Assembly (NCBI GenBank): GCA_003284215.1
Contig: QBVW01000004.1
Coordinates: forward strand, 43,722-107,721
DNA: 64,000 bases
Direction: 5' to 3'
DNA from: SAR86 cluster bacterium AG-313-D11
GTDB taxonomy: Bacteria > Pseudomonadota > Gammaproteobacteria > Magnimaribacterales > D2472
The position numbers and the translations under genes were made by a program. The notes beneath the pieces are model-generated. The model did no database searches, was not told where the DNA came from, and saw nothing but the letters and a program-made list of their open reading frames with translations. Shown here one piece after another: positions 6,639 to 52,082 of this stretch (the stretch's first letter is position 1; every line of letters starts with the position of its first letter).

Positions 6639-7221
6639 TCTTTCTTTTTAAAATTTGAATGGCTTTCCCTCTATGGCTCATCAAAGCTTTATCATCTTCA
6701 TCCATTTCTCCTAAGGACAGATTACTGTCTTTTGGATAGAACATAGGATCGTATCCAAATCCATTGGTTCCTTGCATTGTTGTTGTTACTGAGCCTTCTA
6801 AAAGTCCGGTTGCAATCAGAGGAAATGGATCTTCAGCAACTTGAACTAGTGCAAGCACGCATACAAAGTATGCCTTCGTTTGATTTAACTCCAGCTTTTC
6901 AAGTTCTTTCTTTAGATGCTGTCTATTTTCTTCATCCGTTGCGCTTGCATGCGCATACCGAGCAGATCGCAATCCTGGCAAATTATTTAAGGCAGGTACA
7001 ATCAAGCCTGAATCATCTCCCAGCGAGGCCATGCCAGACACTTTATTTGCTACTCGAGCTTTTTGTAGACTATTTTCTATAAATGTCTTGCCCAATTCTT
7101 CTTCAGGCGTTATGCCCAAAGAGCTTTGTGAGACCATCTTAAAGTTAGGTAATAGTAGGGCAAATTCTTTTAATTTACCCAGATTGTTAGTAGCAACAAC
7201 AATGGTAGTCTGATTAGCCAA
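6616..7221 (-). CDS. rdgB: Non-canonical purine NTP pyrophosphatase RdgB
   Basis: ATNNLGKLKE, DDSGL, GFGYDP, SHRG; TTG start 7221 overlaps the metW stop. Confidence 0.92.
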   Translation of the reverse strand: MANQTTIVVATNNLGKLKEFALLLPNFKMVSQSSLGITPEEELGKTFIENSLQKARVANKVSGMASLGDDSGLIVPALNNLPGLRSARYAHASATDEENRQHLKKELEKLELNQTKAYFVCVLALVQVAEDPFPLIATGLLEGSVTTTMQGTNGFGYDPMFYPKDSNLSLGEMDEDDKALMSHRGKAIQILKRKIENFVAE

Positions 7222-7801
7222 TGAGATAGACTGCTTGAGCAGCAAATAAGTTAGGGAAAGTATTAGCCAGCCAGGAAGAGCCACCTCGACGATTTAAATA
7301 GATCTTCTTTTTAATGGCAAAAGATTCTTCATGACATAACTCTTCAAAATCTGTAATTGTACAAAGATGAAGATTCTTTGTTTCATACCATTTAGCTGGG
7401 AGTTGAGAAGAGGAAGGCATTTTGCCATTTAATATTCCCAACCTGAGTTCCCAGTTTCCAAAGTTAGGCAAAGTAATCACACACTCATTTGCAACCTTTA
7501 AAATATTTTTCATCGCATCTCGTGGCTTTCTTAAGCACTGAATGGAGCTAGCCATAACGGCAACATCGAAATCCATACCTTTATAGTGTTGGATGCCAGC
7601 ATCAATATCTTGTTGAATTACTGATACGCCATTAATAATGCAAGCATTAATTTTTTCTGGATCATTTTCCACTCCATAACCCGTAGCAGATTTCTGCTCG
7701 GTTAGTATTTTAAGAAGAGCACCATCTCCACAACCAAAATCAATGACCTTGGAGTTACTAGGTATCCAATCTAGAACAATTGATTGAAGTTTATTATCCA
7801 T
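7214..7801 (-). CDS. metW: Methionine biosynthesis protein MetW
   Basis: DFGCGDG, PNFGNW, NLHLCTI; follows metX. Confidence 0.9.
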   Translation of the reverse strand: MDNKLQSIVLDWIPSNSKVIDFGCGDGALLKILTEQKSATGYGVENDPEKINACIINGVSVIQQDIDAGIQHYKGMDFDVAVMASSIQCLRKPRDAMKNILKVANECVITLPNFGNWELRLGILNGKMPSSSQLPAKWYETKNLHLCTITDFEELCHEESFAIKKKIYLNRRGGSSWLANTFPNLFAAQAVYLIG

Positions 7802-8894
7802 TAGAGTTTAAAAAGTTTTTAAGTACGGCAGCATATTGATCAGAGTAAAAGAGAAAACTGTCATGACCATAAGCACCTTCAAGCTCCAGGTAAGTGCTAT
7901 CAATGCCTGCCTTTATTGCAGACATTTGGATATCTAATCCGTACTCTTTTGGAAACAGCCAATCTGAATCAAATGATGCAATAAGCAATTTGGCTTGAAT
8001 GCTTTGAAGGCACTTCACCAAATTATTATCAAAATCTTTTGCTGGATCAAAACTATCCATAGCTTTGGTCATAAGGATATAGCTGTTCGCATCGAAGGTT
8101 TTAGAAAATTGCTCACCTTTATACTGAAGATAATTTTCTACTTCATAGTTTACGTCTGCATCCATTTTATTGTCTGGATCTTGCAGTTTTCTTCCAAACC
8201 TTTTACTCATATTAGATTCAGATAAATAAGTTATATGACCAAGCATTCTCGCAGCTTTCAACCCATTTTTAGGCGATGCACCTTTGACCAAATAATCACC
8301 ATTATGGAAATTTTCGTCCTTTTTGATTATTTCTCTGGCCACCTCATTTAATGCAATATTTTGCGTGCTAATTTTTGATGAGGCAGCAATTATTGCGGCT
8401 TTTTTAATTCTCTTAGGATATGAAATTGCCCATTGCAGTGCTTGCATTCCTCCTAAACTTCCACCAGCTACCATTTCCCAGCAAGAAATTCCAAGATAAT
8501 CAGCCAGCAATTTTTGAGTTTCAACCCAATCACTGACAGAGACTTCAGGAAAATTTGCACCATAAGGTTGATCTGTTTCAGCTGCAATAGTAGTCGGTCC
8601 AGAAGATCCGTGACAGCCTCCGATGTTATTAAGGGATACAACAAAAAATTTTGTTGTATCAATTGTTTTACCATCTCCAATCATTTCATCCCACCAACCA
8701 GGTTTTTCTTCTCCTTCTTGAGTACCCGCTGCGTGGTGATTGCCTGAAAATGCGTGGCACACCAAGACAGCATTGGTTTTATCTGAGTTGAGCTCTCCAT
8801 AAGTTTCAGTCATTAACTCAAAACCAGAAAGGGTCTGTCCAGACTCCAAGGCTAAAGAGTCTCCAAAAGATATTTTTTTACATACTGTTTTCAT
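7794..8894 (-). CDS. metX: Homoserine O-acyltransferase MetX
   Basis: LVCHAFSG, GGSLGGMQ, DSDWLFP, GHDSFL. Confidence 0.93.
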   Translation of the reverse strand: MKTVCKKISFGDSLALESGQTLSGFELMTETYGELNSDKTNAVLVCHAFSGNHHAAGTQEGEEKPGWWDEMIGDGKTIDTTKFFVVSLNNIGGCHGSSGPTTIAAETDQPYGANFPEVSVSDWVETQKLLADYLGISCWEMVAGGSLGGMQALQWAISYPKRIKKAAIIAASSKISTQNIALNEVAREIIKKDENFHNGDYLVKGASPKNGLKAARMLGHITYLSESNMSKRFGRKLQDPDNKMDADVNYEVENYLQYKGEQFSKTFDANSYILMTKAMDSFDPAKDFDNNLVKCLQSIQAKLLIASFDSDWLFPKEYGLDIQMSAIKAGIDSTYLELEGAYGHDSFLFYSDQYAAVLKNFLNSNG

Positions 8895-49644: not shown

Positions 49645-49683
49645 TAAATTTTTATATTAAAAATTATAGTAGCTAATAAAAAA

Positions 49684-49733
49684 TGGTGCCCAGAGGTGGA
49701 ATCGAACCACCGACACAAGGATTTTCAGTCCTT
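49684..49733 (-). repeat. Duplicated 3' part of tRNA-Phe (att-type direct repeat)
   Basis: 50 bp identical to 52007-52056; lacks the 5' acceptor strand and an intact D-arm. Confidence 0.95.
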
Positions 49734-49777
49734 GTCTCTAACTGTAAAACCCTATAAAAAAAGGTATTACAGACAAG

Positions 49778-49843
49778 AGTGTTCATATTAGTGTTCATGA
49801 ATTAATAAAATAAAATAATTTTTTCATAATGATTATGAACATA
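49778..49843. repeat. Left cluster of AGTGTTCAT motifs (putative recombinase arm sites)
   Basis: AGTGTTCATA 49778-49787, AGTGTTCATG 49790-49799, degenerate inverted TATGAACATA 49834-49843. Confidence 0.7.
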
Positions 49844-49901
49844 ATTAATTTTTTTTAAAAATAATATTTTCTTTTGTCTTATTAAAGATATTATCTACGT
49901 A

Positions 49902-50330
49902 ATGAAATCCAAAAATATTACTCAAGAATACTTGCGTAAAAGAATCTTTGAAATCGATAAAAAATCAAATCAGGAATACTATATAAAAGATGGAATAAAA
50001 ACTCTCAAAAATGGTCATTGGGAATATCTTTATGATGATGGCAGTTTGTCAGGAAAAGGAACTTTTATAGATGGAGTTGCAACAGGTGCATGGCAACTGT
50101 TTTATCAGAATGGAAAACTTAGTCAAAGAGGATTCTATGATTCTAATGGGAAAAGAGTATCTAAATATGAATATGGAGATACATGGGAATATTATGATGA
50201 GAATGGAAACCTAGAAGTTCTCTTCAATGAAAATATTTACTATGATGATGACCAAACTCTTGAAGAATTTTATGCGTCCTTAAGTCCAGATTTTTTAAAG
50301 GCAATCGAAGAATATGAGGATGACGAATAA
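49902..50330 (+). CDS. MORN-variant repeat (YwqK-like) protein with an acidic tail
   Basis: Repeats NGHWEYLYDDGSL / GAWQLFYQNGKL / DTWEYYDENGNL. Confidence 0.75.
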   Translation: MKSKNITQEYLRKRIFEIDKKSNQEYYIKDGIKTLKNGHWEYLYDDGSLSGKGTFIDGVATGAWQLFYQNGKLSQRGFYDSNGKRVSKYEYGDTWEYYDENGNLEVLFNENIYYDDDQTLEEFYASLSPDFLKAIEEYEDDE

Positions 50331-50333
50331 CTA

Positions 50334-51350
50334 ATGGCAAGACAATCTCCGAAAGTAATAAGTCTTTTTTCTGGATGTGGAGGACTCGATTTTGGTTTCC
50401 AAGAAGCAGGTTATGAGATTGTTTATGCAAATGACATATGGTCATCAGTAAAGAAGACATATGAATACAACCTTAAACATGAGATTGTTATAGACGATCT
50501 CATTAAGGTCAATAAAACTAATATTCCTCAAGGTGATGTAATTCTGGCAGGCATACCCTGCCAACCTTTTTCAAATGCAGGAAATAGGAAGTCTACAAAA
50601 GACAAAGATGGAAACTTATTCCTAGAAGTGATTGATGTTGTGATAAATCAAAAAAAGAAACCTAAAGTCGTAGTTTTTGAAAATGTCAGAGGTTTTTTAT
50701 CTTCTAAAGATGAGGATGGAAAACTACTCACTGATAGATTTACAGAAGAAATGGAAGATTTAGGTTATGTAACAAAATTTGAATTAATTAATGCTGCTAA
50801 TTTTGGGGTTCCATCAAATAGATTTAGAGTTTTTATTGTTTGTTATCTCAAATCAATGAAGAAAGAATATTTTTTTCCTAGACCTTTGGGGATAGAGACA
50901 CCAACTGTAGGAGATATAATTTCTATGAAACTACCTAAATATGAGAACTTAGAAGTATGGGATCTACCTCCTTCGTCCAAGAACATTGTAAAGTTCATTA
51001 AGGAAGGTGGTTCATGGAAAGATGTTCCATATGATGAACTTGCTCCAAGGCATCAAAGAATTAGAGATAATATTAAGAAATATAGATCTCCGAATTTTTA
51101 TAGAAGATTTTCACGAAAAGAGATAATGGGAACAGTTACTGCCACCTCTTCACCTGAAAATAGTGGGATTCTTCATCCTTTAGAAGATAGAAGATACTCA
51201 GTAAGGGAAATTGCAAGATTTCAAAGTTATCCAGATACTTTTACATTCATTGATAAAAGCATTCCAAATAAATATAAAATGATAGGAAACTCTGTCCCTC
51301 CTTTGCTTTCTAAGCACATAGCAGAATCGATACTTACTTCACTATTTTAA
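50334..51350 (+). CDS. DNA (cytosine-5)-methyltransferase
   Basis: Motif I FSGCGG, IV GIPCQPFS, VI FENV, VIII RFR, IX REIARFQSYP, X IGNSV. Confidence 0.95.
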   Translation: MARQSPKVISLFSGCGGLDFGFQEAGYEIVYANDIWSSVKKTYEYNLKHEIVIDDLIKVNKTNIPQGDVILAGIPCQPFSNAGNRKSTKDKDGNLFLEVIDVVINQKKKPKVVVFENVRGFLSSKDEDGKLLTDRFTEEMEDLGYVTKFELINAANFGVPSNRFRVFIVCYLKSMKKEYFFPRPLGIETPTVGDIISMKLPKYENLEVWDLPPSSKNIVKFIKEGGSWKDVPYDELAPRHQRIRDNIKKYRSPNFYRRFSRKEIMGTVTATSSPENSGILHPLEDRRYSVREIARFQSYPDTFTFIDKSIPNKYKMIGNSVPPLLSKHIAESILTSLF

Positions 51351-51902
51351 TTTTTCCAACCATTCCTTTGCTCTGATAACTATAGTTGGATCATCATCAA
51401 ACCTACCAATACCAGTATTACAACTCTCACATAAATATCCTCTCACTTCTCCTGATTGATGATCATGATCCAATACAATTTTACTTATTCCGGCAATTGA
51501 TGATTTATTACAAATTGGACATTCAAATAAGTCATAATTTTTAGGTTTTAAATTTTCCCACTTTTTTCTATCTTTTTGAGAAATTGGTTTTCCGTCTTTA
51601 ATTTTTCTGCAACTTTTACATGAAGGTCTTTTTGTAATAAACCCACCTTTTTTTATTCTGTTATTTGAAAAATCATTCGTTGAAAGTCTCTTAAAGCATC
51701 TGTCACAAACTTTATAATCAAAATTATCACCAACCTTTTCAATATCAAAAAAATCTATTTGACCCATTACCACATTAATAATTTGATTAGATCTCAAAAA
51801 TTTAACTTTGAATTTATTGCTTGCAAATTCATCCTCAATAATCCCAACGTCATTTTTTTCTATGGAATTTAAATTCGTTGTTGCATATATAAACTTTTTC
51901 AC
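51342..51902 (-). CDS. Hpy99I-like type II restriction endonuclease (beta-beta-alpha-Me, Zn-binding)
   Basis: CDRC...RPSCKSCRK, CPIC...DHDH...LCESCNTGIGRF; layout matches R.Hpy99I as I recall it; GTG start. Confidence 0.85.
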   Translation of the reverse strand: MKKFIYATTNLNSIEKNDVGIIEDEFASNKFKVKFLRSNQIINVVMGQIDFFDIEKVGDNFDYKVCDRCFKRLSTNDFSNNRIKKGGFITKRPSCKSCRKIKDGKPISQKDRKKWENLKPKNYDLFECPICNKSSIAGISKIVLDHDHQSGEVRGYLCESCNTGIGRFDDDPTIVIRAKEWLEKLK

Positions 51903-51941
51903 TTGAAAAAAATAGCATATTTAAAGCAACTATGTAGAAAA

Positions 51942-51977
51942 TATGAACACTAAATCTAGTGTTCATAAGTGTTCATA
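51942..51977. repeat. Right cluster of AGTGTTCAT motifs (putative recombinase arm sites)
   Basis: TATGAACACTA-AATC-TAGTGTTCATA perfect 11-bp inverted repeat, plus tandem AGTGTTCATA at 51968-51977. Confidence 0.75.
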
Positions 51978-52006
51978 AAAATGAAGTTTAAGAAATGCAT
52001 TAAGAA

Positions 52007-52082
52007 TGGTGCCCAGAGGTGGAATCGAACCACCGACACAAGGATTTTCAGTCCTTTGCTCTACCGACTGAGCTATCTGGGC
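52007..52082 (-). tRNA. tRNA-Phe (GAA)
   Basis: GCCCAGATAGCTCAGTCGGTAGAGCAAAGGACTGAAAATCCTTGTGTCGGTGGTTCGATTCCACCTCTGGGCACCA; 76 nt cloverleaf with encoded CCA. Confidence 0.98.

Follow-up and report, generated by a model that had tools for sequence, protein, structure and literature searches.

Cargo-only restriction-modification cassettes between paired attachment arms at tRNA genes of small-genome marine Gammaproteobacteria, with a candidate integrase that may move them in trans

Introduction

How do genes that carry no recombinase of their own come to lie between two intact attachment (att) sites at a transfer RNA gene, and what would move them from there? The question is raised by a stretch of 64,000 nucleotides from SAR86 cluster bacterium AG-313-D11 (contig QBVW01000004.1, positions 43,722 to 107,721; hereafter the window), in which a type II restriction-modification (R-M) pair and a gene for a MORN_2-repeat protein are inserted at tRNA-Phe. 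The interval 49734-52056 is a 2.3-kb element that was certainly made by site-specific integration at the part of tRNA-Phe that runs from the anticodon loop to the 3' end. Comparison with related genomes and metagenome contigs suggests that the element is probably a non-autonomous cassette, with triplets of 8-mers that would act as arm sites for the N-terminal domain of an integrase supplied in trans. To our knowledge, genome-streamlined ocean bacteria are without plasmids and conjugation and mostly without prophages, and for one abundant, uncultured group of them this locus offers a concrete and testable answer to how defence genes are exchanged.

What is new here is the arm code itself, a presumed helper integrase with a co-varying N-terminal domain, the spread of an integrase-less unit between bacterial families, and a contig assembled through the attP junction. 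A literature search of limited scope found no description of an arm-coded, integrase-less family.

Anatomy of the element at tRNA-Phe

ARAGORN finds a single tRNA in the window, an intact tRNA-Phe(GAA) on the minus strand (52007-52082), which is also the sole tRNA-Phe among the 32 tRNAs of the assembly (1.30 Mb in 22 contigs, 75% complete). A repeat search returns a 65-nt direct repeat (49676-49740 and 51999-52063) with a start-to-start spacing of 2323, inside which a core of 50 bp is perfect (49684-49733 and 52007-52056) and takes in the encoded CCA end, the T arm and the whole anticodon stem-loop. A preliminary description of this DNA had reported just such a perfect 50-bp copy of the tRNA-Phe 3' end, 2323 bp away and spanning the anticodon loop, and both programs bear it out. 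With up to three mismatches allowed, the core 50-mer occurs exactly twice in the assembly and its reversed control not at all. The copy at 49684-49733 (minus strand), or attR core, is the displaced end of the original gene and abuts the host flank; Rfam sees it as a sub-threshold tRNA fragment (49695-49750, 25.9 bits against a gathering score of 29). The attL core, which came with the element, is the 3' 50 nt of the intact gene (52007-52056). The GC content of the island is 0.23-0.35, against about 0.38-0.43 in the flanks.

Each core is joined to an arm. The left arm (49734-49850) holds two direct GTGTTCAT 8-mers (49779-49786 and 49791-49798), placed a constant 45 nt from the core, and an inverted copy, ATGAACAT (49835-49842). 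The right arm (51943-52006) opens with an inverted ATGAACAC (51943-51950), followed by two direct GTGTTCAT copies (51959-51966 and 51969-51976) and a 30-nt spacer to the tRNA end. These copies, three per end, are the motifs that had earlier been noticed at both ends. None of the three open reading frames (ORFs) between the arms matches PF00589, and tblastn of the island with three integrases of the cognate family, described below, returns nothing at E<=1.

Spread of the integrase-less unit and an attP junction

The unit has spread horizontally between families of the order. The part of the window element that comprises the methylase, the nuclease, the right arm and the core (50333-52056) is 90% identical at the nucleotide level to an element in G099, a genome of a different family (its host proteins next to the element have 43-63% amino acid identity to those of the window), and 92% identical to contig L211. 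The G099 copy is the second unit of a tandem array. At the amino acid level the window methylase is 93% identical to that of G099 and 96% to that of L211, and the junction between nuclease and right arm is identical in all three copies, none of which holds an integrase. Beside the left arm the three have different genes, and the MORN gene is absent from both G099 and L211. Because an integrase-less junction is shared across families at 90-92% nucleotide identity, loss of the integrase preceded the spread, unless an identical deletion occurred three times. The earlier suggestion of a non-autonomous, cargo-only element moved in trans gains support, short of proof, from these integrase-less copies with identical internal junctions in different families.

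Contig L233 (3493 bp) begins and ends with exactly the same 99 bp of cargo DNA. Closed on this overlap it forms a circle of 3394 bp in which right arm, 50-nt tRNA-Phe core and left arm are contiguous, the arrangement of an attP, and the attP predicted for the window element aligns with this junction over 199 nt at 86% identity. The cargo of L233 consists of a 656-aa ORF with a DUF4379 zinc finger, which is complete only once the contig is closed, and a 378-aa protein that weakly matches HEPN_Apea; the closed form contains neither an integrase nor a replication gene. As judged from the assembled sequence, L233 is an excised circle or else two copies in tandem, and both would require recombination of an integrase-less member. 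Another contig, L227, was rejected as a circle, its 33-bp terminal overlap sitting in the tRNA core.

The window stretch was found in 19 sequencing runs, all as Logan contigs, and four seawater runs were compared. In these four, word depth is 18-76 for contigs that match the flanks exactly and 2.7-6.2 for island contigs, a weak hint of low occupancy, the depths being per contig and summed over organisms. One contig in run X2 joins 49740 to 52004 with 30 letters on the shorter side, which fits neither an empty site nor a circle, and loose contig ends at the tRNA belong to the tRNA-Phe of other organisms.

Occupancy of the site in relatives

Related genomes (61) were searched with the neighbouring amidohydrolase, and 16 loci of the same genus were retrieved and annotated. 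Among these congeners the site is polymorphic. In three (G012, G027, G007) it is empty and the amidohydrolase gene directly adjoins tRNA-Phe; five (G019, G018, G010, G011, G031) hold other inserts with copies of the tRNA 3' end (45-50 nt) at their boundaries; and eight have 1.3-3.6 kb of other genes with no detectable repeat. When the element is removed in silico, the window site aligns with that of G027 without gaps over 317 nt at 96.8% identity. Cargo is swapped between conserved ends. In the 4.7-kb insert of G019, similarity to the window element is confined to the ends (left, about 80 bp; right, about 65 bp), which take in every GTGTTCAT copy, and to a relocated fragment of the MORN gene (77% nucleotide identity); the cargo otherwise differs. 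The preliminary description had proposed looking for empty sites and for other cargos between the same ends. The former are the three empty congeners, one of them gap-free against the excised window, and the latter occur in G019 and in many metagenome contigs. Fixed content in all relatives, which had been named as grounds for abandoning the idea, was not seen, since content varies.

The slot between amidohydrolase and tRNA-Phe is occupied in L041, L045, L046 and L048 (G011, G003, G031 and G020) by a conserved gene of 383-389 aa or by a gene for a 474-aa lipoprotein-like protein, some of which precede tRNA-Phe scars of 45-46 nt. Cargo at this hotspot is therefore not confined to defence.

The cassette family and its arms

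Scans of 266 genomes of the order place the window element in a family. The pair GTGTTCAT-N(2-4)-GTGTTCAT is present in 12 genomes, and its reversed control in 1. It lies by tRNA-Phe in six (G000, G019, G005, G131, G135, G099) and by tRNA-Ile(GAT) in four (G114, G009, G178, G192), the remaining two having variants located elsewhere. A 25-nt pattern made from the right arm, by which the family can be tracked in metagenomes, recovers 61 marine metagenome contigs, where the adjacent tRNA or fragment is tRNA-Phe in 20 and tRNA-Ile in 31, with 10 ending too early to be assigned. The same pattern has no match in IMG/VR viral contigs or in a collection of genome contigs, which carries little weight as close relatives are possibly absent there. 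A loose pattern of 8-mer pairs, which hit more than 124 loci in IMG/VR, was rejected as chance: none of the 78 loci inspected had att arms beside a tRNA fragment, and these 78 included one tRNA-like 80-nt match and one motif-only match.

Elements bounded on both sides number 33, several of them the same element sampled twice. Those at tRNA-Phe (16) span 679-4862 bp with a median of 2.3 kb, and those at tRNA-Ile (17) 482-3695 bp. A tblastn search with the three integrases (E<=1), run on 26 genomic loci and the 61 contigs as well as on the window island, found neither an integrase nor a remnant of one in any of the 33. Units commonly stand in tandem, each set apart by a partial tRNA, a 45-50-nt copy of the tRNA 3' end that terminates in the anticodon loop. 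The smallest units, of 482 bp at tRNA-Ile (L077 of G192, L215, L231), are essentially arms free of cargo, or 'empty' cassettes, with two copies of GGTCGGATAAAC at the left end and a GTGTTCAT arm at the right.

Left arms were compared without gaps over 170 nt from the partial tRNA, in 11 metagenome tRNA-Phe elements picked by their right arms only and 6 genomic ones. Over the 16 distinct sequences of these 17 elements the direct 8-mers have an identity of 0.98-0.99 at constant spacing, the inverted 8-mer one of 0.84 and the spacers 0.62-0.75. The arms thus look to be under selection, the 8-mers being kept while the spacers drift. In other lineages the same architecture is built at the same sites from other repeated words, for instance CTGTTCA, GTGTGTAT and TGTGTTA.

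A candidate helper integrase

In five of the 61 contigs (L209, L213, L217, L221, L244) an ORF of 399 aa (P0001) adjoins an identical right arm at tRNA-Ile. PHROGs assigns it to phrog_1, integrase, over residues 9-384 (E 1.6e-16); Pfam reports a SAM-like domain only (E 0.016), PF00589 misses the protein, and there is no sequence match in PDB. R240, K272, R350 and Y383 are invariant in an alignment of six integrase sequences, and this Arg, Lys, Arg, Tyr set together with the homology identifies the presumed helper as a tyrosine recombinase. Integrases elsewhere with the shared att motifs, another item raised by the earlier work, are thereby at hand: a family with the same arm 8-mers exists outside this genome. 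PF00589 is precomputed for 20 of the 120 integrase homologues among the matches listed. Screens based on PF00589 miss the enzyme that would be responsible, and 'integrase-less' islands elsewhere in such genomes may therefore be under-explained too.

The N-terminal domain of this integrase family tracks the arm motif. Between L213 and L217, both with GTGTTCAT arms, the N-terminal ~42 aa are 90.5% identical and the rest of the protein 58.8%; between L221 and L217, again both with GTGTTCAT arms, the values are 95.2% and 57.4%; and between L212 and L217, with CTGTTCAA and GTGTTCAT arms, they are 46.2% and 89.2%. In these pairs it is the arm word, and not the body of the protein, with which the N-terminal ~42 residues vary.

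Autonomous relatives are small, from 1.3 to 4.15 kb, and consist of integrase plus cargo or integrase alone, with the integrase start codon 5 nt from the inverted 8-mer. G047, from another family of the order, has a complete autonomous element of 4.15 kb at tRNA-Phe, with a 51-nt repeat, the integrase beside the tRNA, the same arm architecture built on the word TGTGTTA/TAACACA, and a third type of N-domain. That full-length relatives are so tiny runs counter to the concern, voiced earlier, that the window element is a remnant of a larger prophage or island, of which nothing was seen. In L212 (oriented 7095-8485) a unit of ~1.3 kb that holds the integrase alone lies between two partial tRNA-Ile copies with CTGTTCAA arms, in tandem with a 7-kb cargo stretch that includes a LlaMI-type R-M system and ends in a GTGTTCAT right arm. 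A 166-aa ORF of the G047 element (L291:8300-8800) contains an HFH motif; it has no tblastn match in the window island or the sibling loci, and a replicator for the GTGTTCAT family is not proposed.

The integrase is rare. Full-length homologues occur in 3 of the 266 genomes (G047, G115, G046). A PF00589 search finds only an XerD-like recombinase in the window's own genome, and in G000 and four other carrier genomes only Xer-sized proteins plus two short fragments (G192, G019) far from the islands. Such a search would miss a divergent integrase, and it was therefore repeated with the integrase protein, which found no homologue in the own genome. In a collection of 5.8 billion proteins the family forms 147 clusters at E<=1e-10, of marine sources, of which a few are named 'Gammaproteobacteria bacterium' or 'integrase' and among which N-domains are visibly shuffled between body types. 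Among IMG/VR viral contigs (114 pattern matches) and genome contigs (256) no integrase relative was confirmed by alignment search, so there is no evidence of phage carrying the integrase.

A domain of the same kind is found on a host protein. L289:40-1707 (minus strand; G019:C1) encodes a 555-aa protein resembling the small subunit of glutamate synthase (Fer4_20 and Pyr_redox_2) with an N-terminal extension of ~80 residues, which is 38% identical to the presumed arm-binding N-domain of the integrase (E 3e-13), including the residues PRSPYFYG. Matches similar to this extension occur in 137 of the 266 genomes, and family f4 has the same domain in frames of ~270 aa; the same query finds no such domain in the window's own genome. 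More tentatively, the host protein may interact with the same arms.

Models for movement of the cassette

How, then, would the cassette move? The Hpy99I-type R-M pair and the MORN gene are carried between two intact att arms, and a tyrosine recombinase probably inserted the element by site-specific recombination into the anticodon-loop-to-3'-end segment of tRNA-Phe. Each arm presents a set triplet of GTGTTCAT 8-mers, two direct and one inverted, and to these, as arm-type sites, the N-terminal domain of a divergent tyrosine integrase of ~390 aa would bind. Its gene would be confined to rare units of the same system that are autonomous or hold the integrase alone; when in the cell, the integrase would excise and integrate cargo-only cassettes in trans. 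The window element belongs to a family of miniature cassettes of 0.5-4.9 kb, mostly of R-M genes and often in tandem, at tRNA-Phe and tRNA-Ile of one order of small-genome marine Gammaproteobacteria. Passage of the DNA from cell to cell, and a tRNA-Phe-specific integrase with a GTGTTCAT-type N-domain, are likewise presumed. Enough is now known of the attP arms, the tRNA attB and the candidate enzyme to rebuild the reaction in E. coli.

A broader interpretation is offered tentatively, namely an integron-like, tRNA-anchored system in which cargo-only defence cassettes with a complete attP are shuffled by rare and tiny integrase units. It is conceivable, though we would not lean on it, that the exchangeable N-domains of ~42 residues define compatibility groups (GTGTTCAT, CTGTTCAA, TGTGTTA and others), and with similar reserve one may picture most cells as having cassettes and no recombinase, with dozens of cassettes at tRNA-Phe and tRNA-Ile.

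Several observations weigh against movement in trans by this integrase. An integrase beside tRNA-Phe with GTGTTCAT arms occurs in none of the 20 metagenome contigs and none of the 6 genomes; the five integrases with GTGTTCAT arms are all at tRNA-Ile, and the sole tRNA-Phe integrase, that of G047, uses another 8-mer. The left end of the five integrase-bearing tRNA-Ile contigs was not found within up to 8.8 kb, and the presumed helper element is therefore known by its right side only. The co-variation of N-domain and arm is based on three motif types only, and the arm code is not simple, as some tRNA-Ile elements combine a GTGTTCAT right arm with a different left-end repeat. The 'circle' of L233 could be a tandem dimer, and a resident integrase may have escaped notice in an own genome that is 75% complete. 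Neither a circle junction nor an empty-site read of the window element itself was recovered from the Logan contigs, which break inside the tRNA repeat, so that the excision sought by the preliminary description was not seen.

This failure to see excision is equally what would be expected if the window element were a dead remnant, an autonomous, integrase-bearing mini-element at tRNA-Phe that lost its integrase and persists as a fixed scar keeping both repeats. The inverted 8-mer of the window's left arm is imperfect (ATGAACAT), which counts against trans mobility and for such a scar, and autonomous relatives of the same architecture do exist, with the integrase exactly at the position of the window's junction between nuclease and right arm. 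Streamlined genomes readily delete DNA. A review that covers streptococcal elements has CIMEs (cis-mobilizable elements) originating by integrase loss with attL and attR kept (PMC5704250), and the tycheposon work describes islands with fragmented integrases and partial tRNAs (bioRxiv 10.1101/2020.12.28.424599). Against decay of this sort, an integrase remnant is found in 0 of the 33 bounded elements; the integrase-less junction is common to copies in two families and a third contig at 90-92% nucleotide identity; the direct 8-mers are held at 98-99% while spacers drift; and an integrase-less sibling, L233, has been assembled through the attP junction. A dead remnant is accordingly unlikely, and it is just as doubtful that the differences among relatives are independent autonomous integrations followed by decay.

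Replacement of cargo by RecA has been proposed for flexible genomic islands, and here the tRNA gene, its partial copy and the arms of ~65-100 bp could be the anchors for RecA-dependent exchange after DNA uptake, with no site-specific recombinase at work today. The arms and tRNA segments are indeed the only sequence common to elements with different cargo, the modules are mosaic, with the gene next to the left arm varying among copies of the same R-M module, left and right ends of different motif types are joined in some tRNA-Ile elements, and the site is a hotspot where congeners have many unrelated inserts. Homologous exchange does not explain, however, why 8-mers and not spacers are conserved, why copies of the tRNA 3' end of 45-50 nt that end in the anticodon loop lie between all array units, or why there are arm-only units of 482 bp, and it leaves unexplained both the contig with the attP junction and the co-variation of integrase N-domain and 8-mer. 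The host flanks of the two families that share the cassette are moreover too diverged (43-63% amino acid identity) for flank-based recombination. Swapping by homology is thus improbable, and a non-autonomous cassette moved in trans is the interpretation favoured here.

Relation to known mobile elements

By analogy, the window element is CIME-like or tycheposon-like. CIMEs are defined as elements that keep attL and attR and have lost the genes for integration and transfer (PMC5704250). Like the CIMEs of streptococci described there, members of the present family are flanked by att sites, stand in tandem at the same end of a target gene and would depend on the recombinase of another element (PMC5704250). 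CIMEs derive, according to that source, from ICEs (integrative and conjugative elements) or IMEs (integrative and mobilizable elements) of Firmicutes, and they move in cis once an ICE has come in and accreted with them (PMC5704250). The relatives of the window element, in contrast, have no conjugation genes, the autonomous ones are themselves no larger than about 1.3-4 kb, and ICE ancestry does not fit; unlike CIMEs, the integrase-less units are a coherent, conserved family with a defined arm code that has spread between bacterial families. Anatomically the window element has what a CIME has, both cores and both arm triplets being kept and the recombinase absent. Some CIMEs carry R-M cargo.

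Tycheposons of Prochlorococcus are likewise small cargo elements of streamlined marine bacteria, with integration at tRNA genes by tyrosine recombinases, tandem arrangement with partial tRNAs, and cargo for defence or adaptation (bioRxiv 10.1101/2020.12.28.424599). The same work defines them by an integrase of their own, usually with a replication module, at 10-20 kb, and treats integrase-less ones as degenerated remnants (bioRxiv 10.1101/2020.12.28.424599). The window family differs in being integrase-less in 33 of 33 bounded elements with conserved arms, a distinction drawn from description. In the minimal mobile units of Furuta, Abe and Kobayashi 2010, R-M genes are inserted in a tRNA gene between long direct repeats, which extend from its anticodon loop to its 3' end (PMC2853133). 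Those units include an integrase gene (PMC2853133), and the window unit does not; the window unit also has arm-site triplets common to many cargos. Of the features by which Islander-type islands are recognized, the intact tRNA, the displaced 3' repeat and a precise empty site in relatives are all present in the window, and a tRNA-adjacent integrase is absent.

Integron cassettes and the ccr-less pseudo-SCC elements (staphylococcal cassette chromosome) at rlmH are in function the closest analogues, being small cargo-only units with their own recombination site, arrayed at one place in the chromosome, and moved by a recombinase encoded elsewhere. The window element differs from both in that it has no attC hairpin, IntI, platform promoter or serine Ccr, and has instead a tRNA site with lambda-style arms on both sides. 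An attC hairpin, IntI and attI were looked for in the window element and are lacking; its ends are tRNA-derived cores and 8-mer arms, and Rfam sees tRNA only.

Cargo of the window element and its siblings

The cargo of the window element begins with a gene for a 142-aa MORN_2-repeat protein (49902-50330, plus strand; Pfam PF07661, E 6.7e-8), which has no PADLOC match. It is followed by a type II C5-cytosine DNA methyltransferase of 338 aa (50334-51350, plus strand; PF00145 E 6e-72, PADLOC MTase_II 1.2e-90) and, on the minus strand, by an Hpy99I-like His-Me finger type II restriction endonuclease of 186 aa (51342-51902). The nuclease gene is convergent with that of the methylase and overlaps it by 9 bp. 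The nuclease aligns with Hpy99I (PDB 3fc3, E 6e-36) over residues 4-184, nearly its whole length, and has matches to PF02945 and PF18275 and to PADLOC REase_II (8e-36). Pfam, PADLOC, PDB and tblastn thus agree with the earlier reading of the island as MORN, C5 methylase and Hpy99I-like genes only, with no recombinase. A His-Me finger nuclease homologous to Hpy99I is paired here with a C5 methylase, as in the Hpy99I R-M system itself (PDB 3fc3/3gox); the host and the mobile context differ, and the specificity of the window pair is predicted only.

The survey of cargo in sibling elements took in 203 ORFs that lie upstream of right arms and are 100 aa or longer; they form 135 clusters, of which 132 representatives were scanned with Pfam. 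Cargo is mostly R-M, about 20 of the 132 representatives being DNA methylases or restriction nucleases, and the types include C5, N6/N4, D12, LlaMI, HaeII, MvaI/BcnI, HNH and type III. None of the 132 representatives matches PF00589 at E<=1e-4, and none is a conjugation or relaxase gene. Two ORF clusters, of 138 aa and 154 aa, lie next to arms in 11 contigs each and are absent from the window; neither has a Pfam or PHROG assignment. MORN_2-repeat proteins (142-283 aa) recur beside R-M genes, in L208, L215 and L218 as well as in the window (49902-50330).

Outside the window, at G000:C1:163394-164465, an insert of ~1 kb is bounded by a 52-nt tRNA-Thr(UGU) copy, and the repeated word at its left end is a different one, TGACTACA. 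This is the only other duplication of a tRNA 3' end in the window's own genome.

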